A stretch of 64,000 nt of DNA from Candidatus Parcubacteria bacterium (GTDB lineage: Bacteria > Patescibacteriota > Patescibacteriia > Patescibacteriales > UBA12465). Below, piece after piece: positions 3,267 to 63,811 of the stretch. The stretch's first letter is position 1. The number at the start of each line of letters is the position of its first letter. The DNA is taken from the NCBI GenBank assembly GCA_037076615.1, contig AP029158.1, positions 463,717 to 527,716 on the forward strand, read 5' to 3'. Below the pieces are notes generated by a model that was given only the letters and a program-made list of their open reading frames with translations, ran no database searches and had not been told where the DNA came from. Made by a program: the position numbers and the translations under genes.

Positions 3267-4493
3267 CTATTTTTTATTTTCGAGAAGAGCCAAAGTTTCG
3301 GTCGCACAGCGATACCAGCAAAATTTCTTGGCTTGACGAAATCCGCGCTCTTTTAACTCCGCTCGTAATTCTTTATTTAAAACTAACTCCGCCATCGCCT
3401 CGGCAATCTCGGTATAATCAAGGTGATTAAAATAACGAACCGCCTCACCGGCCACCTCCCTTAAAACAGAGATATCGGAAACGGCCGTCGGCACTCCTGA
3501 AGCCAAAGCTTGCAAAACCGGAATACCAAAGCCTTCGTGTTTAGTGGGAAAAATAAAAGCGGTCGCCTGCTGAAAAATTAACGGTAGCTCATTTTCTTTA
3601 ACCCAGCCCGGCATAATCACCTCGCGCTCTAAATCAAATTCCTCAATAACATACTTAACCTCGTCGTAGCCATAACTGGCATTACCAATTAAAACTAATT
3701 TTTCTTTAATTTCCGGATACTCTTCTCTTAAAAAGGCAAGCGCCTCAACTAAGGCGACCGTATTTTTCTTTTTTTCCAAGCGGCCGACATATAAAAAATA
3801 GGGGCGGGTAATACCGTAACTATCCAAACAACGATCGGCTTCGGAATTCGTGCCGCCGTTGGGTTCGTATAACTCTGAAGCAAAGCCGTTATGAATAACT
3901 TTAATTTTTCCTGGGTCAGCGAAAGGAAAACATTCTAAAATTTCTTGCTTAGTAAAATCAGAAACAGTGATAATTGTTTCCGAGTGGCGCAAGGAAAAAA
4001 TCGTGGACCAAAAAAGATAATCCAAGCTCGTGCCCTGGTAACGACCGCCGCTAAAAACTTTAACCAAAAACTTAATAAAATTACGGCGCTTGGCACTGCG
4101 CGCTTTCGGCGCTTCCGGACGATAAACAGCCTCTTCGCGAGCAAAGGCAATATCATGAATAGTATTAATCGTGCGGCGCGGATGAATTAAGGGAATCCCG
4201 TGGGCGGGAACAAATAAAACATCGGGACGACGAAATAACATCTCTAAAGACAAACGCCCTAGAGTCCAAAAAGAAGTGAGTGGCCAAGACAAAACCCGAA
4301 ACTCAAAATTAGGCGCCTCGGCGACGATCGCCTTTAACTCCGCCGTCGGAATCTGATCCAAATAAAGGCGATAACGGTTATGACGATCAAGACGGGCGAG
4401 CTCTCTGATTAGATAAAAAGAATACCACTCCGTGCCGGTCTTTTTTTGTCTGTTGGCGCGTGAAGCGTCAATACCAATCAACATAAAGCGCAA
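3267..4493 (-). CDS. Glycosyltransferase family 1
   Basis: 408 aa. C-terminal GT1 motif PTKHEGFGIPVLQALASGVPTAVSD. Confidence 0.75.
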   Translation of the reverse strand: MRFMLIGIDASRANRQKKTGTEWYSFYLIRELARLDRHNRYRLYLDQIPTAELKAIVAEAPNFEFRVLSWPLTSFWTLGRLSLEMLFRRPDVLFVPAHGIPLIHPRRTINTIHDIAFAREEAVYRPEAPKARSAKRRNFIKFLVKVFSGGRYQGTSLDYLFWSTIFSLRHSETIITVSDFTKQEILECFPFADPGKIKVIHNGFASELYEPNGGTNSEADRCLDSYGITRPYFLYVGRLEKKKNTVALVEALAFLREEYPEIKEKLVLIGNASYGYDEVKYVIEEFDLEREVIMPGWVKENELPLIFQQATAFIFPTKHEGFGIPVLQALASGVPTAVSDISVLREVAGEAVRYFNHLDYTEIAEAMAELVLNKELRAELKERGFRQAKKFCWYRCATETLALLENKK

Positions 4494-4508
4494 AAATAAA
4501 AAGGCGAC

Positions 4509-5516
4509 TTATTTAGTCGCCAAAATGCTCCGTTTATAGGAGTCTAGATTATCTAAGGCGATGCCGGTTCCTTTAACAACACACAGAAGCGCATCATCGG
4601 CAACATAAGCGGGCACACCGGTCGTGCGCGCAATTAATTGATCCATATTACGCAGCAAAGCGCTGCCACCAGTTAAAACAATACCCTTGTCCATAATATC
4701 AGCCGCTAATTCCGGCGGAGTGGTATTTAGAACTTTCTTGGCGGCCATGACAATGGCTTCTAACTCATTTTGAATCGCTTCGGTGACATCGTCGCTAGAC
4801 ACCGTGATGCTACGCGGTAAGCCAGTGACAATATCTCGACCCCGAATTTCCATATACAGCTTATCTTCCATATACAAGGCAGAGCCGATGTTGATTTTAA
4901 TTTCTTCAGCAGTTCGCTCGCCAATAGCCAAATTATATTTTTTACGGACAAACTCCAAAATTGCGTCGTCAAACTTATTACCACCCACTCGGACTGAAGT
5001 GGAGGAAACAACGCCGCCTAAAGAAATAACGGCCATTTCTGCCGTGCCCCCGCCAACATCAATAACCATATGGCCCGTTGCCGAACCAATCGGAATATCA
5101 GCCCCAATCGCGGCTGCCACCGGCTCCTTAATAATGTAGGTGGCTTTAGCACCCGCGGAAGTTGCCGCTTCAATGACCGCCCGGCGCTCAGTTGAAGAAA
5201 TTCCCGCCGGTACCGAAATCATTACCTCGGGGCGGAAAAAACGCATCCCGCCGATAGTTTTATTAATAAAATAGCGGATCATCGCCTCGGTAGTGCGGTA
5301 ATCAGCAATCACCCCCTCTTTTAAAGGCTGAATGGCCCGAATCGTGTCCGGAGTGCGCCCCAACATATCTTTGGCTTCGTTGCCAACCGCTAAAATCTTA
5401 TTGTCATCGATAGAAATCGCCACCACGGATGGTTCGTTAATCACAATTCCTCTTTTCGGCAAATAAACTAAGGTATAGGTCGTCCCGAGATCGATGCCAA
5501 TGCGTTTTATAAACAT
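4509..5516 (-). CDS. mreB: Actin-like rod-shape protein MreB, second paralog outside the mreBCD operon
   Basis: 335 aa. GIDLGTTYTLVY, NEPSVVA, VIDVGGGTAEMAVISLGG, LTGGSALLRN. Collinear with the MreB at 10298-11344. Confidence 0.85.
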   Translation of the reverse strand: MFIKRIGIDLGTTYTLVYLPKRGIVINEPSVVAISIDDNKILAVGNEAKDMLGRTPDTIRAIQPLKEGVIADYRTTEAMIRYFINKTIGGMRFFRPEVMISVPAGISSTERRAVIEAATSAGAKATYIIKEPVAAAIGADIPIGSATGHMVIDVGGGTAEMAVISLGGVVSSTSVRVGGNKFDDAILEFVRKKYNLAIGERTAEEIKINIGSALYMEDKLYMEIRGRDIVTGLPRSITVSSDDVTEAIQNELEAIVMAAKKVLNTTPPELAADIMDKGIVLTGGSALLRNMDQLIARTTGVPAYVADDALLCVVKGTGIALDNLDSYKRSILATK

Positions 5517-5603
5517 ATTTTTCTAATATCAGTAAAAAAAATCCTGGACCAAGCCGTTAAAAAATTACCGCTTGACCCCTAATTTATAACGGAAAAACCA
5601 CAA

Positions 5604-6050
5604 TTAGTCAATTGCCATTACTTCCTCGCCGTCATTCCAATTACTGTCCGTATCTTCCCCTAAGCGTTCGGAGTTGGCCATAATTTTCTTCACTTTTTCG
5701 GCAAATTCATAAGTATCAAACTCCTCTTTGGGGAAAAAGTAATCAGCGCCGATCTCTAAGCTCCGGGCACGACTATCCTCATCAGAAATATCGGAAAAAA
5801 TAAAGATCGGTAAGTCTGCTAGCTCCGGATCGTTTTTTACGCGCTTGATAATTTCAAAGCCATCTATATTAGGCAGAATCACATCTAAAATTAGATAATC
5901 AGGGCGAAAATCGCGAAGGTCATCAATGATTTCTTCTAACTCCTCTTCCCCCTCGTGAGTTTCCACACTTAAACCATCGGCACTAAAATTAGCCTCAAGG
6001 CTGTAAAGAATGTTGGCATCATCTTCAATGATAAAAAGTTTTTTCCCCAT
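5604..6050 (-). CDS. Stand-alone response-regulator receiver domain (CheY-like)
   Basis: 148 aa. KLFIIEDD acidic pocket, phospho-acceptor context YLILDVILPNIDG. No output domain. Confidence 0.75.
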   Translation of the reverse strand: MGKKLFIIEDDANILYSLEANFSADGLSVETHEGEEELEEIIDDLRDFRPDYLILDVILPNIDGFEIIKRVKNDPELADLPIFIFSDISDEDSRARSLEIGADYFFPKEEFDTYEFAEKVKKIMANSERLGEDTDSNWNDGEEVMAID

Positions 6051-6060
6051 AAGATTAAAA

Positions 6061-7026
6061 TTAAGAACGTAAACGGCGCCACCAAGAAGGATGGTCTTGA
6101 TACCATTTAATCGTTTGCGCTAAACCTGCCGCCAAAGAAACTTGCGGTGCAAAACCTAGTTCGGTCGCCGCTTTAGAAAAATCGATGGCATAACGAAGAT
6201 CGTGACCCAGGCGATCAGTCACATACTCAATCTTGTCTTCTCCCTGCCCCATTAACCGTAAAATATCTTTAGTTAAGGAAAGGTTATCACATTCACTGTT
6301 GCCACCTAAACAATAAGTTTCACCAATTCGTCCTTTATTAATAATTAAGTCCAAGCCGCGATTATGGTCGTCTACATAAATCCAATCCCGAATATTTTTA
6401 CCATCACCATAAACAGTTACCGATTCCCCGTTTAAAAGATTGGTCACAAAGTGCGGAATTAATTTTTCCGGATGTTGGTAGGGGCCGTAATTATTAGAAC
6501 AATTAGAAATGGTAATCGGCAGGCCATAAGTATGATAATAGCTACGGACCAAATGATCAGAAGCAGCTTTTGAGGCGCTATAAGGAGAACGCGGATCGTA
6601 AGGGGTTTTTTCAGAAAACTTCGGTGAGTCAAAGTCTAGCGCACCAAAAACTTCATCAGTAGAAACATGGTGAAAGCGTTTTAAGCCGTGGTGTCTCGCG
6701 GCCTCTAAAAGAACACGGGTACCCTCAACATTAGTTTTAATAAAAGCCGCGCTGTCAGCGATAGAGCGATCAACATGGCTCTCGGCGGCAAAATGAACAA
6801 TCAAATCGCAAGTGGCCACCAAGCCGTCCACCAGTGCCGCATCAGTAATATCACCCTCCACAAACTGGTAATGAGGGTTATTTTCCACCTCAGCCAAGCT
6901 CTCTAAATTAGCGGCGTAAGTTAACGCATCCAAATTAACGATCTCGTCGTCTGGATGTTCACGAAGCCAATAGTGAATAAAATTAGAGCCGATAAATCCG
7001 GCCCCGCCGGTCACTAAAATTTTCAT
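6061..7026 (-). CDS. rfbB: dTDP-glucose 4,6-dehydratase
   Basis: 321 aa. MKILVTGGAGFIGSNF, HVSTDEVFG, YSASKAASDHLV (catalytic YxxxK). Confidence 0.9.
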   Translation of the reverse strand: MKILVTGGAGFIGSNFIHYWLREHPDDEIVNLDALTYAANLESLAEVENNPHYQFVEGDITDAALVDGLVATCDLIVHFAAESHVDRSIADSAAFIKTNVEGTRVLLEAARHHGLKRFHHVSTDEVFGALDFDSPKFSEKTPYDPRSPYSASKAASDHLVRSYYHTYGLPITISNCSNNYGPYQHPEKLIPHFVTNLLNGESVTVYGDGKNIRDWIYVDDHNRGLDLIINKGRIGETYCLGGNSECDNLSLTKDILRLMGQGEDKIEYVTDRLGHDLRYAIDFSKAATELGFAPQVSLAAGLAQTIKWYQDHPSWWRRLRS

Positions 7027-37191: not shown

Positions 37192-38160
37192 TTATTCAGT
37201 CGCCAACCTTATTTCCCCACACTTCCCGTTAGTAGCATCAACAGCATCAAAAATATCGTCAATGTTCGGCTCGTAAGCGGATAGTTTAGTGCCATCTTTT
37301 AAGGTTAGCTCCACAAATTCTTGATGACTTTGAAAAGCCTCCTCCACTTCACAATTATTAATCGCTTCTAAGAGGATGGGCCAGGTGCTATTGGCCTCGT
37401 TTACAAAAGAGCGGTTATCAGGAGTCAAGCAAAGATTGGGGTTAGTTTCATCAACTTTTAAGCCAGCAGCCACACAATCATCATAATTTCTAATTCCATC
37501 TAAGAGAGCCTGACAATAGTCATGGCTGCCCCAATCGCTGGCAACCAAACAAACAGCCAAACGATCTTTAATAGTGGTTTGCGAAAGAGTAATAGTCTTA
37601 ACAATCTCTTCCACTAAGGCGTCAAGATTGAAATCAGCCTGCTCTTTTTCACAAGCGGTCTTCTCCGGGTCGTCATAGTTAACGCATTGCGGATAGCCAA
37701 GGAAGAAAGAAATAACTCCGGTTTGGCCGGCCAGGGGGAAATAATAACTATAGTTTTTGTAGATGGTGCCGGCCGCTCCCTCAGAATAAGTGGAAACGCA
37801 GTAAGAACGACCATCAATTGTCTTCTCAGCTTTCCAAATTCCCGGCGATGACTCATTGCCGACAGGATTACAAGAATAAGGGGCATTTAAAACAATTAAT
37901 GTTGGTGACCAGTCTCGAGAAGAAATGTATTTTGTCTCAAGTCTAGGCGGATAACTGTAGGATTCACCGGTATCGGTAACGCTAAACACCCAGTCGGCGG
38001 GGAGATTAATTCCAGAAGAAATATCGCGCTGGCCGTCATCATTTGTCACTAAAACGGCGGCGGCGATCATCACTAAACCAAGGGCGATTAAAAGCAAAAG
38101 GGGCCCATAATGGAAGGGTCTCTTGGTGGTGGTTTTTTTAAAAGAATTTTCAGGTTCCAT
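37192..38160 (-). CDS. Hypothetical Cys-rich exported or membrane-anchored protein (orphan)
   Basis: 322-aa ORF. N-terminal TM/signal anchor (LLLLIALGLVMIAAAVLV), many Cys residues. Terminator follows. Confidence 0.45.
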   Translation of the reverse strand: MEPENSFKKTTTKRPFHYGPLLLLIALGLVMIAAAVLVTNDDGQRDISSGINLPADWVFSVTDTGESYSYPPRLETKYISSRDWSPTLIVLNAPYSCNPVGNESSPGIWKAEKTIDGRSYCVSTYSEGAAGTIYKNYSYYFPLAGQTGVISFFLGYPQCVNYDDPEKTACEKEQADFNLDALVEEIVKTITLSQTTIKDRLAVCLVASDWGSHDYCQALLDGIRNYDDCVAAGLKVDETNPNLCLTPDNRSFVNEANSTWPILLEAINNCEVEEAFQSHQEFVELTLKDGTKLSAYEPNIDDIFDAVDATNGKCGEIRLATE

Positions 38161-38252
38161 ATGTTTTTTAAAATTAAAGAAAACGAAGTCTTCTTAAGAG
38201 AATAATAGCAAATTTAAGGATTTTGGGGAATTGGATTAAAAAAGGTTAAATT

Positions 38253-39112
38253 TTAAAATCTCAACCAGTTTGGCGGAATCAGATCGCTATCATCCGCCTT
38301 ATCATTAGCAAACCATTGTTTTGGAGCGATTATTATTTTTGTAGGGTTACTAATTAACCATGCGCCCCACCAAGAAAATGAGCTATTAGCGACAACACCG
38401 TGACGGCACTGGCTCATTAAAGCAAGCTCTTCAAAGTCTTGGAGATTACCATCGGAAACGTAAACTGCATCTTCAATTTTTAGGTAATCTTGAACCCAAG
38501 AAATATCATCAGAAAAAATAAAAAACCTAGGATTTTTTACCTTCCCTCTCATAAACTTGACCGCTCGCTCGTAGTAATCCAAAGGACAAAGACCTAAAAA
38601 TTTATTAGCGGCGCTATTTGAAACATAATCACCACGACGAATATGAACAAAGATTGATTCAGATTCAGTAATATTTAGATTAGTATTTAAAGGAGTTTTT
38701 AATTTAAACTCTTCATTTAAAATATCCACTATATCCTCAAAGTATTTATAACTTTGAAAAAACCCTGTTAGCCAAATATTATCTTTAAGCCGTAAAATAT
38801 TAGAATCAAAGCCGACTCCATTTTCAAAATAATATTTTTTTAAATAAAATCGAGTCTTTAAACCAATTTTCCTTAATATTTTATGAAGTAGGTTTATTTT
38901 TTTATAAATAAGGCCAGCGGGATTATTACTTACCGCTTTAATATTATAGAGATTTAATAAATATTGACGTGGTGTATCCGAACCACCATAGGGGGGGTCA
39001 GATAACTATAATCAATATTTATTTCAGTATTATTCTTTAGCGCCAGTTGGCGAGCAACAGCGTACTGGAATAGTTGATTGCCAAGCCCACCTTTTATTTT
39101 TAAATTGACCAT
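38253..39112 (-). pseudogene. GT11 alpha-1,2-fucosyltransferase, reading frame broken at a C7 (G7 on + strand) homopolymer
   Basis: ATG at 39112 gives MVNLKIKGGLGNQLFQYAVARQLALKNNTEINIDYSYLTPP, then runs out of frame after the tract at 38991-38997. The next frame continues ..YGGSDTPRQYLLNLYNIKAV...HIRRGDY... to the stop at 38253. One extra C would give an intact 286-aa protein. Confidence 0.75.
38991..38997 (-). repeat. Homopolymer G7 (+ strand) / C7 (coding strand) at the fucosyltransferase frameshift
   Basis: Read directly: ...accata ggggggg tca... at 38991-38997. Confidence 0.9.
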
Positions 39113-39852
39113 AAACTTAAAAATATCCTTAAAATAGATTTTAATTTTGCCTTAAAGTAGCCAGGATAATCTTTTTTATATTTATTAATTATTTGATTAG
39201 TAACAATCGCTATTTTATACTTATTTTTTTTAGAAATCCCTTCATTATGTATAAGATAAGCGACAAGCGGTTCGCCAATATTTGCCAATCTAAAATTGCG
39301 TCCGATTTTTAACCATAAATCGAAATCTTCACAAACAACTAAAGATTCATCATAGCCAGCAACTAAATTAAATACTTCTTTTTTAAATAAAACACTGGAT
39401 TGGGCAAATTGATTTTTAAATAAAATTTTTTTTCTAATTGAATTATCTTGAGTTTTAAAAATATCTTCTTTTATTTTAATTCCCTTCTCATTAAAACAAA
39501 TAATGCCAGTACCAACTAACCCAACTCTACTATCTTGATTGAATATATTTAATTGTTTTTGCAGTTTATTATTATCTAACCAATAATCATCACTATCTAG
39601 CATGGCAATATATTCCCCCCTAGCCATGGAAATGCCTAAATTACGACTTTTAGAAATACCTAAATTGATATTATTCTTATAATATTTAATCCTTTCATCA
39701 GTTAAACTACCAATTAAAATTCCCGTATCATCAGTTGAAGCATCATCAATAATTATTAACTCAATATCTTTATAGGTCTGTAATAAAACACTCTTTATAG
39801 CTATTGAAAGTAAATCGGAACGATTGTAGGTACAAATAATAACAGAAATCAT
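39100..39852 (-). CDS. Glycosyltransferase family 2
   Basis: 250 aa. MISVIICTYNR, IIDDASTDDT, AMLDSDD (DxD). Confidence 0.8.
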   Translation of the reverse strand: MISVIICTYNRSDLLSIAIKSVLLQTYKDIELIIIDDASTDDTGILIGSLTDERIKYYKNNINLGISKSRNLGISMARGEYIAMLDSDDYWLDNNKLQKQLNIFNQDSRVGLVGTGIICFNEKGIKIKEDIFKTQDNSIRKKILFKNQFAQSSVLFKKEVFNLVAGYDESLVVCEDFDLWLKIGRNFRLANIGEPLVAYLIHNEGISKKNKYKIAIVTNQIINKYKKDYPGYFKAKLKSILRIFLSLWSI

Positions 39853-39863
39853 AAGTGAAAAAA

Positions 39864-40787
39864 TTATTTCTCTACCAATTCTGCTAGCCCAATAGCATTA
39901 TCTTTATGAATAAAAATTAAATTATCATAAACATATTTATCTTTTGCTTTGTGTAAACTAAGGTTTCCATTCACATCACACTCATATGCTATATAATTAT
40001 TTGTTAATAAAATATCAATAGACTTACGGCAATTATCCTTCCATTCATCCTCGCCAGCAACCTCAATACTAATAACCGGTTTTAATTCTTTCATAATATA
40101 ACCCATGCCTTCCAGAATAAGATGTTCTGCGCCCTCAGCATCAATTTTAATAAATGTTGGAGTTATATTATGTTTTTTACAATAATCATCAAGAACAGTT
40201 GTTTTAACTTTTATCTCAATAGCATTCTTCCTCAAAAATTTAGTGTCGTCAGATGTTCTTTTTCTAAATCCATTAAAAGCACTAAATTTAGGACCATAAT
40301 CTATAAAATTTATTTCTTTTTCCTCATTAAGAACGGCGAGATTATTGATAATTACATTACCACTTTCTTTTGTGTTTATTTTTAAAGATGAGAAAGTTCT
40401 TGGTGTCGGCTCAAAACTATAGACACGCCCAGAATCTTCAACCAACCGAGAGCACAAAACGGTATAGTAGCCAACGTGAGCACCAACATCTAAAAAACAA
40501 TCTCCCTTTTTGAGAAAATTTAATAAAAAAATAGTTAAATTTGCTTCAAAAAACCCATAATAAAGAATTGCCTGGCCTTCTGGTAAAAAATAAGTCATTT
40601 TATCACCCCATAAAGTTTTTACCCTGACTTTATAAGGATGAATTCGAGCTATTATGGCTAAAACGTAAAAAAACAATGTTCTAATTGGATCTTTAACTAA
40701 CCTCAAAAAACGATTATTATTTATTTTATAAAGCTCATGCCTTTTCAAAACTTTTTCTTTTAACAATTCCCTTTCCTCACTATTCAT
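39864..40787 (-). CDS. FkbM-family SAM-dependent methyltransferase
   Basis: 307 aa. FLDVGAHVGYYT SAM-binding motif, IKIDAEGAE motif typical of the FkbM family. Confidence 0.7.
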   Translation of the reverse strand: MNSEERELLKEKVLKRHELYKINNNRFLRLVKDPIRTLFFYVLAIIARIHPYKVRVKTLWGDKMTYFLPEGQAILYYGFFEANLTIFLLNFLKKGDCFLDVGAHVGYYTVLCSRLVEDSGRVYSFEPTPRTFSSLKINTKESGNVIINNLAVLNEEKEINFIDYGPKFSAFNGFRKRTSDDTKFLRKNAIEIKVKTTVLDDYCKKHNITPTFIKIDAEGAEHLILEGMGYIMKELKPVISIEVAGEDEWKDNCRKSIDILLTNNYIAYECDVNGNLSLHKAKDKYVYDNLIFIHKDNAIGLAELVEK

Positions 40788-40793
40788 ATTTTT

Positions 40794-41897
40794 TTAATTA
40801 TTTTTATAAACCTCTAAATATTTTTCTACCATCTCGGCAACAGAAAACCTATCAGTAGCGGCTAGCACTGAGCTATCTTTAAATAACAGCTGCAGAAAAT
40901 CATCTAAGTTATTTACTTCAAAACAATTCTCTTGACCAACTACCTCACTATTGCCACCAACATCACTGGCGATAGTCGGCACGCCCGACTTCAAGGCTTC
41001 AATAAGAGAAATAGATAAACCTTCATAAAGAGAGGGTAAAACAAAGACATTAAAAGCTTTAATAAAGCGGCTGGCTTCAGAAACTGCGCCCATTAAAAAA
41101 AACTGCCGCTCTAAACCTTTTTCTTTGATAAGTGTTTCATACTTTTCTCGCTCCGGACCTTCACCAATTATTACTCCTTTGGCATCAGGTTTTATTTTTA
41201 ATATCTCGGAGAAAGAATCAATTAAAAATTCATAATTTTTTGGAAAAGCTAGGCGACCAATAGAGCCAATAATATAAGCTTGGCTAAGATCCTCGCCAAG
41301 GCGATCAGAAATAAATTGTCGCGCCTCTTCTCGGTTTTTAAAATAACCACTCGGGAAATCTAAGCCGTTATAAATTAGAACGCCTTTTTTGGCGATGCCT
41401 AATTTTTTGGCAGTATTTAAATTATGCTCACTAACAAAAACCACCTTGTCGGTAAACCTTAGAAAGAATTTGAAAAAAGCCTTAAACCCTAATTTTATCA
41501 AAGGACTACTTTTATAATTCTCATCTAAAACCGATAGCCCGTGAACGGTAAAAATAACCCCTGGCTTAGGACCGCAAAGCTTGGCGGCCAGGGCTCCGGG
41601 TAAAGTGTTAGAGCTATTAAGATGAACAATATCAAAGCTTTCTCTCTTAATAACTCCTTTTAACTCTTTAATAAAAGATAAGATTTGAAAAGGATTACGG
41701 CTCCGCTTTAAGCTACCTAATCTGATTGTTTTTATTCCTGCCGGCGCTAGCTTCTCGGCCAAAAAATCACCCTCACCAAAAGCAACCACGACTTCGTGAT
41801 CTTTATGTTTAAGTCCTTGAGCGAGAGCTAAAATAAACGACTGGGCCCCGCCTATTTCGCCTTTGGTAATAACCAACAAAATCTTCATATTACCCAA
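40794..41897 (-). CDS. Glycosyltransferase family 1
   Basis: 367 aa. N-terminal KGEIGGAQSF. C-terminal PSLYEGLSISLIEALKSGVPTIASDVGG. Confidence 0.75.
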   Translation of the reverse strand: MGNMKILLVITKGEIGGAQSFILALAQGLKHKDHEVVVAFGEGDFLAEKLAPAGIKTIRLGSLKRSRNPFQILSFIKELKGVIKRESFDIVHLNSSNTLPGALAAKLCGPKPGVIFTVHGLSVLDENYKSSPLIKLGFKAFFKFFLRFTDKVVFVSEHNLNTAKKLGIAKKGVLIYNGLDFPSGYFKNREEARQFISDRLGEDLSQAYIIGSIGRLAFPKNYEFLIDSFSEILKIKPDAKGVIIGEGPEREKYETLIKEKGLERQFFLMGAVSEASRFIKAFNVFVLPSLYEGLSISLIEALKSGVPTIASDVGGNSEVVGQENCFEVNNLDDFLQLLFKDSSVLAATDRFSVAEMVEKYLEVYKNN

Positions 41898-41899
41898 TA

Positions 41900-42151
41900 T
41901 TATACCAGTTTGTTTTTAATATTCCTATTTTCCACCCCCTCCTCCAAATAGAAAAGTTTATCAATCGGCGTAGCGAGCTCGGCGGCAATCGTGAGCGCTA
42001 ATTTTAGCGAGGGATTGTACTTCCCTTGTTCTAAAAAAACAATGGTCTCCCGCCGCACCCCAACCCGCACCGCCAGATCTTCCTGGGTTAACCCCTGCTG
42101 CAAGCGACACTCTTTTAAATTGACGCCTAGCTCCTTATTTTTTCCAGGCAT
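41900..42151 (-). CDS. XRE-family helix-turn-helix transcriptional regulator
   Basis: 83 aa. [36 protein letters not shown]. Confidence 0.8.
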
Positions 42152-44432: not shown

Positions 44433-44433
44433 C

Positions 44434-44459
44434 AAAAAACACCCTAGCGGGTGTTTTTT
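44434..44459 (-). terminator. Intrinsic terminator immediately after the duplicated tRNA-Ser 3' end
   Basis: Minus strand AAAAAACACCC-GCTA-GGGTGTTTTTT. Confidence 0.7.
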
Positions 44460-44463
44460 ATAT

Positions 44464-44488
44464 GCGGAGAGCAAGGAATTACGAACCC
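44464..44488 (-). repeat. Direct repeat of the tRNA-Ser 3' end (acceptor 3' strand plus T-arm 3' half)
   Basis: The + strand GCGGAGAGCAAGG at 44464-44476 is identical to 44671-44683. It then continues aATTaCGAACCC versus gATT-CGAACCC in the tRNA. Confidence 0.85.
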
Positions 44489-44627
44489 GTCGCTTCGCTC
44501 CCCTCAGGGGGCTTCCGCCCTCTTAGGCACTCCTCATTTCATTCGTCGCTGACACCCCCGCAAAAACGGTGGGAAACCTAGGTTTCCCAAACCCTTCCTA
44601 GGGTTCGAATCTTTTCATAACCAACCC
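44489..44627 (-). other. Body of tRNA-Ser-linked non-coding module (module A)
   Basis: 139 nt without a plausible ORF. Contains anti-T-arm GATTCGAACCCT (44600-44611), an 18-nt perfect palindrome (44571-44588), ACGAATG (44540-44546) and a GGGC-GGAA-GCCC hairpin (44509-44520). Confidence 0.5.
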
Positions 44628-44670
44628 TCATACAACAAAGACGCCCCCTTGGGGCGTCTTTGTTGTATGA
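44628..44670 (-). terminator. Perfect 20-bp hairpin directly after tRNA-Ser
   Basis: TCATACAACAAAGACGCCCC / GGGGCGTCTTTGTTGTATGA with a 3-nt loop. GC-rich core flanked by A-rich and T-rich arms. Confidence 0.6.
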
Positions 44671-44671
44671 G

Positions 44672-44756
44672 CGGAGAGCAAGGGATTCGAACCCTTGATA
44701 CCTTGCGGTATACACGCTTTCCAAGCGTGCGCACTAGACCACTATGCGAGCTCTCC
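44672..44756 (-). tRNA. tRNA-Ser (anticodon GGA), class II with long variable arm; CCA not encoded
   Basis: Minus strand GGAGAGC-TC-GCATAGTGGTCTAGTGC-G-CACGC-TTGGAAA-GCGTG-TATACCGCAAGGTATC-AAGGG-TTCGAAT-CCCTT-GCTCTCC-G. Hand-folded cloverleaf. Confidence 0.9.
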
Positions 44757-63309: not shown

Positions 63310-63381
63310 GGTCCCTTCGTCTAACGGTTAGGACGCCAGGTTCTCATCCTGGTAACAGGGGTTCGATTCCCCTAGGGACTA
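63310..63381 (+). tRNA. tRNA-Glu (anticodon CUC); CCA not encoded
   Basis: GGTCCCT-TC-GTCT-AACGGTTA-GGAC-G-CCAGG-TTCTCAT-CCTGG-TAAC-AGGGG-TTCGATT-CCCCT-AGGGACT-A. Hand-folded; resembles bacterial tRNA-Glu. Confidence 0.9.
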
Positions 63382-63383
63382 CT

Positions 63384-63420
63384 AAACAAAACAACACCTC
63401 AGAGAGGTGTTGTTTTGTTT
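63384..63420 (+). terminator. Perfect 17-bp hairpin directly after tRNA-Glu
   Basis: AAACAAAACAACACCTC-AGA-GAGGTGTTGTTTTGTTT. Confidence 0.6.
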
Positions 63421-63582
63421 AGACGGCGTTAGCCGCGGGAATCGAACAGGTTGGAAATGAGTCAAATCCGAGCCGCTATTTCGAGCGGCGAGGATACAGA
63501 CGAATGTCGGACAATATGCCGGGGGCATATTGAACGCCAACCCTGGACAAGTGAGCTTTTCGGAAGAAAAGCGAGCGCGATA
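63421..63582 (+). other. Body of tRNA-Glu-linked non-coding module (module B)
   Basis: 162 nt. Anti-T-arm GGGAATCGAAC (63437-63447), hairpins GCCGCT/AGCGGC (63472-63489) and CAATATGCC-GGG-GGCATATTG (63512-63532), closing pair GGCGTT/AACGCC (63425-63430 / 63533-63538), ACGAATG (63500-63506), GCTTTTC-GGAA-GAAAAGC (63555-63572). Confidence 0.5.
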
Positions 63583-63600
63583 ATTCCCCTAGGGACTACT
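63583..63600 (+). repeat. Direct repeat of the tRNA-Glu 3' end
   Basis: ATTCCCCTAGGGACTACT is identical at 63366-63383 (tRNA 3' end plus 2 nt) and 63583-63600. Confidence 0.9.
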
Positions 63601-63811
63601 GATTAAAACAAAAGAAGACACATCTTTAGATATGCCCTTTTTCTTACTTATCTATATTTTAGTTAGGTTGGCAGGTATTGAAATAAAAATCGGCGATTTC
63701 GCAGTGTGAATAATTCGCTCGAAAAATAAACTCTCCTTCTTTAGTACAAAAATTTCAACTTCAATTATAATTTCACCTGAAAATATTAACCTTAGTATAG
63801 ATGATTGCCAA

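Follow-up and report, generated by a model that had tools for sequence, protein, structure and literature searches.

A tRNA-flank RNA cassette of Patescibacteria with a predicted tRNA-specific strand swap

The window, meaning the whole 64-kb stretch of DNA that was analysed, contains two tRNA genes, both followed by a cassette of ~215 bp without open reading frame (ORF), of a kind that lies in the 3' flank of some Patescibacteria tRNA genes (Table 1). Its parts follow a set order: the intact tRNA, a long hairpin right past tRNA position 74, a short spacer, a box antisense to the T-arm of the tRNA (positions ~53–64), ~140 nt of RNA core with several helices, and a T-loop-like stretch. The last 17–19 nt of the tRNA are then repeated up to position 74, and a terminator-like hairpin or the next gene follows. 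At the two loci of the window, ~110–140 nt of GC-rich sequence separate box and 3'-end copy; the two cassettes are here called modules A (tRNA-Ser) and B (tRNA-Glu). An earlier note on this DNA quoted sequences that are all present where it placed them, and stated that each module repeats part of its own tRNA in both sense and antisense orientation, which is the case at both loci. The collinear landmarks it listed are likewise there: ACGAATG, the GGAA-capped hairpins, GAGCG (also present in module B), and the 3'-end repeats.

Table 1. Positions of the two tRNA genes and of the cassette features that follow them.
Feature	Position	Strand	Basis or remark
tRNA-Ser(GGA), intact	44671..44756	(-)	ARAGORN; Rfam tRNA 55.5 bits; sequence
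T-arm segment of tRNA-Ser, AGGGTTCGAATC, target of box A	44695-44684	(-)	
Hairpin H_A, perfect ~20-bp stem	44628..44670	(-)	Begins immediately past tRNA position 74
Box A, GATTCGAACCCT, anti-T-arm	44600..44611 (44611-44600)	(-)	Exact antisense of tRNA-Ser positions ~50-61
Module A body, GC-rich hairpins	44489..44599	(-)	Sequence
ACGAATG, module A	44546-44540	(-)	
GGGC-GGAA-GCCC hairpin, module A	44520-44509	(-)	
GAGCG, module A	44500-44496	(-)	
T-arm-like stretch and tRNA-Ser 3'-end copy, GGGTTCGTAATTCCTTGCTCTCCGC	44464..44488	(-)	
Exact 3'-end repeat of tRNA-Ser, CCTTGCTCTCCGC	44476-44464	(-)	Terminates at tRNA position 74
Terminator-like hairpin immediately past distal copy, module A	44433..44460	(-)	Sequence
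tRNA-Glu(CTC), intact	63310..63382	(+)	Sequence; ARAGORN; Rfam
T-arm segment of tRNA-Glu, GTTCGATTCCC, target of box B	63361-63371	(+)	
Hairpin H_B	63383..63421	(+)	Begins immediately past tRNA position 74
Spacer with small hairpin GGC-GTTA-GCC	63422..63436	(+)	
Box B, GGGAATCGAAC, anti-T-arm	63437..63447	(+)	Exact antisense of tRNA-Glu positions 53-63
Structured core of module B	63437..63588	(+)	Match to model R1/R2
ACGAATG, module B	63500-63506	(+)	
GGAA-capped hairpin, module B	63555-63572	(+)	
Distal copy of tRNA-Glu 3' end, ATTCCCCTAGGGACTAC (positions 58-74)	63583..63599	(+)	

At the tRNA-Ser(GGA) locus, the first hairpin is terminator-like, with 20 pairs, its 5' arm rich in A and its 3' arm in U; its loop is inverted in the related locus L019. 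The 12-mer of box A is the exact reverse complement of the T-arm segment, and box and target are the sole matches in 64 kb at up to one mismatch; a shuffle control gave at least two matches anywhere in 5 of 100 sequences, with no constraint that they adjoin a tRNA. The body of module A has an unexceptional fold by itself (z = −0.7), and its two known copies (the window, also L006, and L019) are near-identical, and hence hold no covariation information. A terminator-like hairpin past the distal copy recurs in most other members.

Two covariance models built on relatives of module B, R1 and R2, score module B at 187 and 179 bits, respectively, in register, module B itself having belonged to the seed alignment. 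Module A gives at best 14.5–15.5 bits against the same models with filters off, and out of register; nhmmer with module A returns self matches only, and an alignment of the two modules by MAFFT was poor. On sequence, A and B have a layout and a few short motifs in common, and homology, which the earlier note had inferred, is not demonstrable. Nor is the common offset of the box a family feature, as the gap between hairpin and box is 6–16 nt in other members; the 16 nt proposed for both loci holds in A, and is 15 or 16 in B according to the end chosen for the stem. Between box and ACGAATG, the 52 nt given for B is right, and the 54 nt given for A should be 53. TAATTCC is not a module motif but a diverged T-loop copy, in place of which tRNA-Ala copies have CGAGTCC or AAGTCCT.

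Module B has a structured predicted core (z = −4.5), comprising a closing helix P1, a helix P2 that encloses arms P3 and P4, and a hairpin P5 with a GGAA loop, the helices being broken by four 2x2 internal loops, three of them tandem GA/GA and one GA/AA. Ten non-identical relatives were collected, all except one from Patescibacteria MAGs or unbinned metagenome contigs, with tRNA-Glu(CTC), tRNA-Glu(TTC), tRNA-Gly(GCC) and tRNA-Ala(CGC) as hosts. In the place of the spacer hairpin, B-type relatives have GCC-GAA-GGC, GCC-AAA-GGC or GAG-AAG-CTC. Strict motif scans found cassettes 3' of tRNA-Glu(TTC), tRNA-Gly(GCC) and the same tRNA-Ser, with more in metagenomes and one or two matches per genome; searches with R1/R2 added copies 3' of tRNA-Ala(CGC) and a degenerate third type. 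Two B-type copies (L026, and the distal one of L027) have no tRNA directly upstream, and the ~90 nt preceding them, considered as a decayed tRNA-Glu, gave no tRNA signal and no convincing alignment.

The consensus fold comprises 49 base pairs common to the relatives, with 96.8% of cells paired. Structure and covariation analysis, proposed earlier as a check, found double (compensatory) changes at 27 of the 49 pairs in the B family, a figure reached by none of 500 shuffles, with slid controls at 1–7. GNRA loops, tandem G-A loops and G-U substitutions characterise the core, as does an invariant U-G pair (9 of 10 aligned cassettes); because this pair is kept and single changes yield G-U, the RNA strand can be assigned to that of the tRNA. 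This substitution pattern shows that the core evolves, at the level of sequence, in the manner of a folded RNA encoded on the tRNA strand. Core identity is 0.90–0.94, against 0.55–0.76 at fmt third codon positions and 0.57 in the hairpin and spacer; by this measure conservation of the core exceeds that of neighbouring coding DNA. There is no conserved ORF in the cassette: a 51-aa ORF over module B was dismissed as a gene, as it has stops in L020 and its residues shift with the compensatory stem changes. In Rfam 15, neither module gives anything at the gathering score, which only the two tRNAs pass, and at E ≤ 10 both modules and L027 give only noise far under the thresholds.

All nine members scored have a box antisense to the T-arm. 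It is found at the corresponding place in 10 further cassettes, where its sequence follows the T-loop of the adjacent tRNA: AATCGAA with Glu, ACTCGAA with Ala and ATTCGAA with Ser. The antisense box thus co-varies with the neighbouring tRNA, as the earlier note suggested it might, T-loop position 59 being T, G and A in the Glu, Ala and Ser tRNAs and the corresponding box base A, C and T; in the type-C box, the sole mismatch to the tRNA is a G-U pair. It is against this pattern that chance, or a functionless degenerate antisense tRNA pseudogene fragment, has to be weighed. T-arms are partly palindromic, which makes antisense-like matches easier than for random 12-mers, and module A alone is without comparative support; yet the box keeps its position and orientation in 10 of 10 aligned B-to-E cassettes and in module A, and changes with the tRNA, where a pseudogene of the kind the earlier note allowed for would show no positional conservation. 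ARAGORN and Rfam call no tRNA-like gene on the opposite strand, the match is just 11–12 nt long, and the box A 12-mer is found nowhere else in the window. An accident of this kind is extremely improbable.

Calculated duplexes between box and tRNA range from −19.6 to −27.4 kcal/mol, with 8–12 contiguous Watson-Crick pairs, whereas those between the box and the cassette's own 3' repeat range from −5.2 to −19.6 kcal/mol and are the weaker in all nine members (−21.1 versus −13.9 kcal/mol for box A). The two pairings had been proposed side by side, and modelling favours that with the T-arm in a read-through transcript: in minimum free energy (MFE) folds of the transcript from tRNA to repeat, the box is predicted to pair with the T-arm at both loci of the window and at 7 of 8 loci overall. 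The distal copy pairs with the acceptor 5' strand in the folds of 7 of the 8, and the swapped fold is 7–17 kcal/mol better than tRNA and trailer folded separately. P1, formed by the box and the 3' part of its own cassette, shows no compensatory support, and the box:tRNA pairing one co-varying position only; covariation cannot separate the two. The box keeps GAAC, the antisense of G53-T54-T55-C56, which has no partner within Glu, Gly or Ala cassettes.

From these energy calculations a strand swap can be envisaged. In a transcript extending past the hairpin, the genuine tRNA would have its T-loop and 3' T-stem strand paired with the box; T-stem and acceptor pairing with the tRNA 5' part would then fall to the distal copy, and the tRNA body would refold round the cassette, which would resemble a large T-loop insertion bearing a spare 3' end and hairpin. 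Every such fold is a prediction, and co-transcriptionally an ordinary cloverleaf would form first. Promoter-like sites were found solely upstream of the tRNAs (tRNA-Ser and tRNA-Glu), and at L082 the distal copy ends only 4 nt before tRNA-Pro, and therefore transcription presumably traverses the cassette. We infer that a strand swap specific to the tRNA, taking place in RNA and perhaps also with the two strands of the tRNA gene, could tie the cassette to its tRNA, where it may serve to recognise and occupy the tRNA gene (homing or integration, with an enzyme acting in trans), to capture the read-through precursor, or both. We put the account as a whole, a Patescibacteria tRNA-flank RNA cassette with a tRNA-specific strand swap, at a probability of about 0.45.

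A fold of this kind also brings to mind an intron-like RNA in the T-loop, either a self-splicing or self-circularising RNA or the descendant of one, in which the box would be an internal guide to the 5' exon and the proximal 3'-end copy and hairpin would render an unspliced insertion harmless. The predicted read-through fold is a full cloverleaf with the cassette emerging from the T-loop, the box is placed like an exon-binding guide, and conserved unpaired stretches (GGACAAGUGA, GAGCGCG) could form a core. However, Rfam returns no group I/II intron or small ribozyme match even at E ≤ 10, the intron end consensus is absent, and the complete upstream tRNA makes splicing unneeded, all of which renders an intron-like origin very improbable.

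The cassette was inserted with duplication of the tRNA 3' end, as shown by the existence of empty sites, a tandem remnant and a two-cassette locus. The tRNA-Ala/tRNA-Pro site is empty in L090/L092 and filled in L082 and L026. tRNA-Glu genes without cassette occur in L087/L089 and in L086, where the terminator is a homologue of that past the distal copy in L027, and tRNA-Ser has no module in relatives at 70% or 52% DsbA identity. L027 contains two cassettes, and L035 a tandem remnant, with the window's hairpin and spacer lying past its distal copy and non-homologous sequence further on. The inserted unit could be hairpin, spacer, core and copy, or core and copy alone. Direct repeats of the tRNA 3' segment, 13–31 nt long, bracket the insertion, with the intact tRNA proximal; they stop at position 74 in Ser, Glu and Ala copies, and the Gly repeat of L020 (31 nt) continues beyond CCA as far as the terminator sequence. 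An inverted repeat of 6–11 bp is made up of the box and the T-loop-like 3' part.

No integrase, transposase, reverse transcriptase or nuclease gene was found in the window or within 3–10 kb of any cassette, in a Pfam search that covered 40 window ORFs of at least 120 aa and the neighbours of related loci. The only recombinase seen, a serine recombinase, is at the cassette-free tRNA-Glu site of L086, and cassette neighbours are housekeeping genes, Fic, CYTH or hypothetical proteins. With no mobility gene nearby, mobility is therefore read solely from the patterns of presence, absence and tandem arrangement. A blastn search of the module B cassette (63383-63601, hairpin to distal copy) against phage and plasmid collections gave no match. 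A scan of viral contigs for T-loop, box and ACGAATG gave 11 matches, all unrelated, and a conserved 21-mer of the core occurs in 34 viral contigs, none of which matches model R1 and which are thus unrelated.

Direct repeat, restored tRNA and element-borne terminator are together the classic signature of a conventional tRNA-targeting integrative element, of which the cassette might be a cargo-less relic or mini attP with arms. The distal copy would then be attR, and box and T-arm the inverted half-sites of a tyrosine or serine recombinase encoded elsewhere. In line with this, tRNA 3' ends are integration hot spots here, with a large serine recombinase element at the L086 tRNA-Glu, the flanks of tRNA-Ser vary between strains, and Fic and CYTH cargo lies between the two cassettes of L027. 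Arms that bind protein, however, do not evolve compensatory changes that preserve only pairing, G-U for G-C, or kept GNRA loops; no recombinase lies in or beside any of ~12 cassettes, and the core has long been conserved without cargo. The recombinase half-sites raised in the earlier note are consequently unlikely, given conservation of an RNA type and no recombinase gene with any cassette, and an att site acting at the DNA level is on balance quite doubtful. tRNA-targeting elements of phage or ICE type, with attL/attR at the tRNA 3' end, and their ORF-less cis-mobilisable derivatives (CIMEs) resemble the cassettes in these repeats, tRNAs and terminators, in tandem pile-up at one tRNA and in empty and filled sites. 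They differ in that the cassettes have no integrase (no ORF within, and no recombinase Pfam match in the window or related flanks), measure only ~215 bp, and have as interior a conserved folded RNA with compensatory changes and an antisense T-arm copy. We know of no description of any of these traits for att arms.

The same locus comparisons bear on a host RNA gene that is not mobile, i.e. a tRNA 3'-trailer RNA kept by the cell. Once processed by RNase Z or RNase P, such an RNA would use the box and the 3'-end mimic to bind its cognate tRNA or pre-tRNA or to refold it, for instance so as to titrate, chaperone, mark or check the tRNA, and the 3'-end duplication would be design, not an integration scar. 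Retention is long and vertical at the fmt-tRNA-Glu and tRNA-Ala/tRNA-Pro loci, in relatives at 63–78% protein identity, and stable inheritance at these two loci is as compatible with a host RNA gene as with a mobile element. Conservation of the core above coding DNA, the lack of a mobility gene nearby, the position of the L082 cassette within a tRNA operon, and box:tRNA complementarity that is better kept than that of the box to its own 3' part all count towards a host gene. This would leave unexplained, however, why B-type cores of different genomes are near-identical (0.81–0.94) although they follow three different tRNAs, and likewise the tandem remnant, the double cassettes and the clean absence in close relatives, and two copies persist with no adjacent tRNA; we consider a purely cellular gene unlikely. 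Functional RNAs do arise from tRNA precursors, as with the tRNA 3'-trailer sRNAs (3'ETS-leuZ of E. coli), and a box C/D guide in the intron of archaeal pre-tRNA-Trp acts in cis on its own tRNA, part of which it matches in antisense. Unlike the cassette, both the trailer sRNAs and the archaeal guide are short, and neither a tRNA-end copy nor an anti-T-arm occurs in the trailer sRNAs; box C/D machinery is not known from bacteria.

A guide RNA for an RNA-guided DNA enzyme encoded in trans, like the IS110 bridge RNA or the tRNA-homing guide of V-K CAST, would make direct use of the two tRNA-matching segments, with the box paired to positions 53-64 on the sense strand of the tRNA gene and the 3' copy to positions 56/58-74 on its template strand. 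V-K CAST elements home to tRNA genes through a short guide, and the cassette combines a scaffold with a 3' tail of 17–19 nt identical to the target and a second segment complementary to the other strand; that the box keeps GAAC, although partnerless inside Glu, Gly and Ala cassettes, also fits. Bridge RNA and V-K CAST delocalised crRNA resemble the cassette in having a scaffold of ~150–180 nt with short segments that match the DNA target, which in the cassette are one sense and one antisense relative to the tRNA gene. The correspondence to IS110, TnpB omega-RNA and Cas12k systems in such target-complementary segments (box 53-64; tail = 56/58-74) is formal only. An adjoining recombinase or nuclease gene is lacking: no Cas12k, TnpB, IscB or IS110-type gene lies near any copy. 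The cassette has no sequence, Rfam or model similarity to known guide scaffolds, its two segments are complementary to each other, the presumed seed is sequestered by the box, and searches of viral, phage and plasmid collections did not find the element. A role as guide is accordingly improbable.

Extending the strand-swap account, we tentatively entertain a protein-less, RNA-defined element whose folded RNA recognises one tRNA, or its gene, by a two-part strand swap, and installs and keeps itself in the T-loop/3'-end region of that gene. Such a tRNA-specific homing RNA might be a guide for a trans enzyme or a T-loop intron-like ribozyme, and would be re-targetable by about a dozen bases. RNA complementary to a T-arm opens specific primer tRNAs in the U5-TpsiC interaction of avian retroviruses and the boxes of Ty1, comparable to the box described here. 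The primer-binding site of retroelements is antisense to the tRNA 3' end; the cassette instead has a sense copy, and no reverse transcriptase. Dada elements carry a piece of the target gene and leave the target intact. These eukaryotic DNA transposons are reported to insert into tRNA and snRNA genes, sparing single-copy genes (PMC8869645), and are like the cassette in being a selfish insertion that targets small multicopy RNA genes. Dada differ in being eukaryotic and transposase-encoding, and in having no structured RNA core or anti-T-arm segment.

If the strand-swap account is true, some of the smallest bacterial genomes maintain a conserved RNA of ~150 nt with no recognisable specificity other than for a single tRNA, written as one antisense and one sense segment. 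The cassette would then be either a mobile element that targets tRNA genes in a new way, without encoding a protein, or an RNA of a new class, able to remodel one particular tRNA or the precursor of that tRNA. On either reading, the few large bacterial RNAs whose function is unknown would gain a family. In practical terms, the cassettes break assemblies at tRNA loci, and a 3'-end copy can pass for an ordinary att scar.

Further element classes were compared with the cassette. MITEs are short and ORF-less, with terminal inverted repeats and many near-identical copies per genome; the cassette has no ORF and has the 6–11-bp inverted repeat, and strict patterns gave one or two matches per genome. 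Group I/II introns were set aside, with no Intron_gpI or Intron_gpII match at E ≤ 10 and a cassette that begins GGGAAUCG... and not GUGYG. T-box riboswitches were discarded, as the cassette lies downstream of the tRNA, downstream genes are unrelated or convergent, and Rfam gives no T-box match. ARAGORN found neither standard nor permuted tmRNA, the 12.7 bits for tmRNA_permuted arising from the T-arm only. On inspection of the sequence, hammerhead, HDV-like, group II domain V, K-turn/box C/D, IS200/IS605, IS91, casposon and retron were each rejected for want of a defining motif or of the partner gene, as was integron attC, a single hairpin of 57–141 nt with RYYYAAC/GTTRRRY, the cassette being multi-branched with 49 pairs and no IntI; ATCGAAC and GTTCGAT match the attC R''/R' boxes at just 6 of 7 positions.

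Both tRNA genes that ARAGORN finds in the window (Patescibacteria, candidate phyla radiation; GC ~43%) are followed by an ORF-less cassette, module A behind tRNA-Ser(GGA) and module B behind tRNA-Glu(CTC), near the housekeeping genes GatCA, PGK, ClpB, Def, Fmt, SecA and aminoacyl-tRNA synthetases. An identical module A is present in one GTDB Patescibacteria MAG. Each cassette carries a box antisense to the T-arm of its tRNA and, distally, a copy of the tRNA 3' end. The box/T-arm matches quoted in the earlier note are exact and occur nowhere else in the window; its positions describe the arrangement correctly apart from one distance that is off by one, and its fixed hairpin-to-box offset varies with the end chosen for the hairpin stem.

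Features of modules A and B, in window coordinates and in order of transcription of the tRNA
Module	Feature	Position	Strand
A	tRNA-Ser(GGA)	44756-44671	minus
A	perfect ~20-bp hairpin, after tRNA-Ser	44670-44628	minus
A	spacer, 16 nt, between hairpin and box		minus
A	box GATTCGAACCCT	44611-44600	minus
A	GC-rich hairpins, ~110 nt, 3' of box		minus
A	GGGTTCGTAATTCCTTGCTCTCCGC	44488-44464	minus
A	terminator-like hairpin after GGGTTCGTAATTCCTTGCTCTCCGC, last part		minus
B	tRNA-Glu(CTC)	63310-63382	plus
B	hairpin	63383-63421	plus
B	spacer, 15 nt, with small hairpin inside, between hairpin and box		plus
B	box GGGAATCGAAC	63437-63447	plus
B	core, ~135 nt, 3' of box		plus
B	ATTCCCCTAGGGACTAC, after core	63583-63599	plus

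The loop of the tRNA-Ser hairpin (44644-44654) is CCCCAAGGGGG in the window; the otherwise identical copy of L019 (GTDB MAG JBMNOL01) has CCCCCTTGGGG. The palindrome centre is thus inverted, through a genuine flip at the hairpin or through misassembly. Same-strain Logan contigs (L001, L002, L004) stop within this hairpin (~44645) and within tRNA-Glu (~63373), and one of 18.7 kb runs exactly from module to module; the modules interrupt short-read assemblies.

The first search pattern comprised the T-loop, GACGAATG and TAATTCC, the box being left out on purpose; among 185,579 species genomes it again recovered module A, and B-like modules behind tRNA-Glu(TTC) and tRNA-Gly(GCC). A B-type pattern yielded more copies from JGI metagenomes, and contigs of Fmt and LCP-protein homologues recovered the same loci in relatives. 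Covariance model R1, built from nine B-type copies, detected in two lineages a diverged cassette that follows tRNA-Ala(CGC), scoring 88.9 and 63.3 bits, and a degenerate third cassette type immediately 3' of tRNA-Glu in contig L027. As the genome and metagenome scans were one strict-pattern pass each, the census is incomplete and skewed to B-like sequences. Viral contigs, phage genomes and plasmids yielded no cassette copy. The sequence ACGCCAACNNNGGACARGTRA is present in 34 IMG/VR viral contigs (L047-L080), ~10x a rough chance estimate; none fits the cassette model, and the sequence probably belongs to a coding motif conserved within one phage group. The contig with the tRNA-Gly cassette (L020, CAZREL010000032.1) is binned as 'uncultured Gammaproteobacteria', an assignment that may be wrong because all other cassettes are Patescibacteria-only.

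In every member the cassette starts antisense to the T-arm of the preceding tRNA, and in two copies without an adjacent tRNA the box is antisense to the tRNA-Glu T-arm. The T-loop TTCGATT of tRNA-Glu is matched by (G)GGGAATCGAAC; the same loop in tRNA-Gly, with CCCG as T-stem 3' strand, by CGGGAATCGAAC; TTCGAGT of tRNA-Ala by (G/A)GGACTCGAAC; and TTCGAAT of tRNA-Ser by GATTCGAACCCT. T-loop position 59 co-varies with the box in three states, and the type-C box has one change from perfect antisense, which gives a G-U pair. The box thus tracks its tRNA, as the earlier note had proposed, and a copy at odds with its neighbour was seen at no examinable locus. Two partners are available to the box: the genuine tRNA and, as helix P1, the T-loop-like sequence at the start of the cassette's 3' end. 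P1 shows no compensatory changes in the ten-member alignment (helices 1 and 2), and the box:tRNA duplex is the more stable in 9/9 cases (-19.6 to -27.4 vs -5.2 to -19.6 kcal/mol for box and own 3' end). The invariant GAAC of the box is antisense to G53-T54-T55-C56 and has no partner within the Glu, Gly or Ala cassettes. We infer that the box and the 3'-end copy, the two tRNA-specific ends, are where the cassette functionally contacts the tRNA or its gene.

Between these ends lies a folded RNA core, with a consensus of 49 pairs in the B-type alignment. In the ten-member alignment, 96.8% of cells are paired, a percentage somewhat inflated by fitting to the model, and 27 pairs change on both sides; 0/500 shuffles equal these values, and sliding partners by 1-3 columns leaves only 1-7 pairs with double changes. 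Compensatory changes were already seen in an independent MAFFT alignment. Chance, ranked last among the explanations, is scarcely credible. Across the family, stems are swapped wholesale with pairing retained, P4 from CAATATGCC/GGCATATTG to CAAAGCTCC/GGAGCTTTG and P5 from GCTTTTC/GAAAAGC to GCAATGC/GCATTGC and GCCCGCC/GGCGGGC. One-sided changes in the ten-member alignment are mostly G-U, one U-G pair is kept in 9/10 members, the core loops are GNRA-like, and the helices of module B are broken by 2x2 internal loops, four in all (three tandem GA/GA, one GA/AA). These features assign transcription to the tRNA strand. The ACGAATG landmark of the earlier note is, in module B, the 3' strand of a loop-interrupted helix (GAC-GA-AU). 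A small ORF overlapping module B shows no conservation. Folded alone, module B gives z = -4.5; module A gives z = -0.7, not a good fold. In Rfam 15 the gathering score is reached by the two tRNAs only, hits at E <= 10 adding noise only, and ARAGORN finds no tmRNA in the window, so the module RNA is not an RNA known to either; that it is an intron-like ribozyme, ranked fifth, is very improbable.

The cassette is an insertion. Between tRNA-Ala and tRNA-Pro lie 12 nt in L090 and L092 and ~215 nt in L082 and L026, the latter two lineages being about equally distant (63-67% LCP identity). Relatives with 61% Fmt identity have tRNA-Glu(CTC) without the cassette, and in L086 tRNA-Glu is followed by a homologue of the terminator found 3' of the distal copy in L027; the distal copy therefore stands where the tRNA originally ended. 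Behind the single complete cassette of L035 come the hairpin and spacer known from the window, with no core after them. This hairpin and spacer (1846-1898; TAAAC...GTTAGCCG) end exactly at the expected box start and may be left over from a second cassette or represent a target still unfilled. In L027, CYTH and Fic genes separate a degenerate cassette from a second one. Relatives with 70% or 52% DsbA identity have tRNA-Ser without the module, in flanks unlike even among strains with identical DsbA; in L039-L042, with identical DsbA, the sequence diverges immediately past tRNA position 74. In L038 (70% DsbA identity) this flank holds a diversity-generating retroelement (3840-6717; bAvd, RVT_1 reverse transcriptase, then a Fic gene); most differences between its variable/template repeats, at 4570 and 5052, fall on A positions.

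Behind tRNA-Ser, tRNA-Glu and tRNA-Ala, the 3'-end repeat stops at tRNA position 74; the 31-nt repeat of the Gly copy (L020) extends beyond CCA into the terminator, whose outer stem is common to proximal and distal copies. A ~90-nt AT-rich block, not tRNA, is shared before the B-type cassettes of L026 (13706-13800) and L027 (811-905, minus); it ends in AAGACTAC, matching tRNA-Glu in the last 6 nt only. The cassette might be a DNA-level att relic, a rather unlikely explanation that we rank third. Searches of the window and of 3-10 kb around related cassettes found no integrase, transposase, reverse transcriptase or RNA-guided nuclease domain, and a guide for an RNA-guided enzyme, ranked fourth, is decidedly improbable. 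These cassettes make up a new structured-RNA family whose members lack ORFs and behave as insertions at the 3' ends of tRNAs; an integrative RNA cassette, selfish or domesticated, is the reading ranked first (probability roughly 0.45). The earlier note held the two modules to be homologous. Module A fits the layout in full (12/12 box, part order, strand-swapped minimum-free-energy fold, absence in relatives); it is not demonstrably related to the B-to-E family, and just two near-identical A copies are known.

Core identity to the window is 0.90-0.94 in L035, L037 and L027 (75-90% Fmt identity) and 0.99 in the near-identical L032 (97% Fmt); for these genomes, identity is 0.55-0.76 at the third codon positions of fmt and ~0.57, effectively unalignable, over the hairpin and spacer. 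B-type cores elsewhere reach 0.94 behind Glu(TTC) and 0.81 behind Gly(GCC), and tRNA-Ala cores are ~0.6-0.7 identical to B and 0.69 to one another. These identities point to vertical retention over long periods at some loci and, at others, to a recent move from one tRNA to another.

At eight loci the sequence was folded from tRNA position 1 through the last base of the distal copy. In 7/8, the predicted minimum-free-energy structure retains the D-arm and anticodon arm, pairs the T-loop and 3' T-stem strand with the box and the distal copy with the 5' T-stem and acceptor 5' strands, and loops out the proximal 3' end and hairpin. This swapped fold is computed to be 7-17 kcal/mol better than tRNA and trailer folded apart (z ~ -8.4 for modules A and B); as modelled, it is a family-wide property, arising because the cassette has two tRNA-specific ends. 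The swap is a prediction, and an RNA that folds while being transcribed would first tend towards the normal cloverleaf.

Promoter-like sites lie upstream of the tRNAs only (modules A and B), and in L082 the distal copy is 4 nt from tRNA-Pro, so that transcription presumably crosses the cassette. A purely host tRNA-trailer RNA, ranked second, is an unlikely account. The sole recombinase seen, of the large serine type, lies next to a Rep gene in L086, at a cassette-less tRNA-Glu. Directly after this tRNA-Glu(CTC), positions 3983-6681 encode the recombinase (507 aa), whose called ORF overlaps the tRNA 3' end, and a REP_ORF2-G2P replication protein; the segment resembles a plasmid- or phage-like element that has integrated at this hot spot, where there is no cassette. 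Within the window, 38000-42000 has a GC of 0.30-0.35 vs 0.43 elsewhere and, with glycosyltransferase and FkbM-type methyltransferase genes, looks like a surface-polysaccharide island gained by horizontal transfer.
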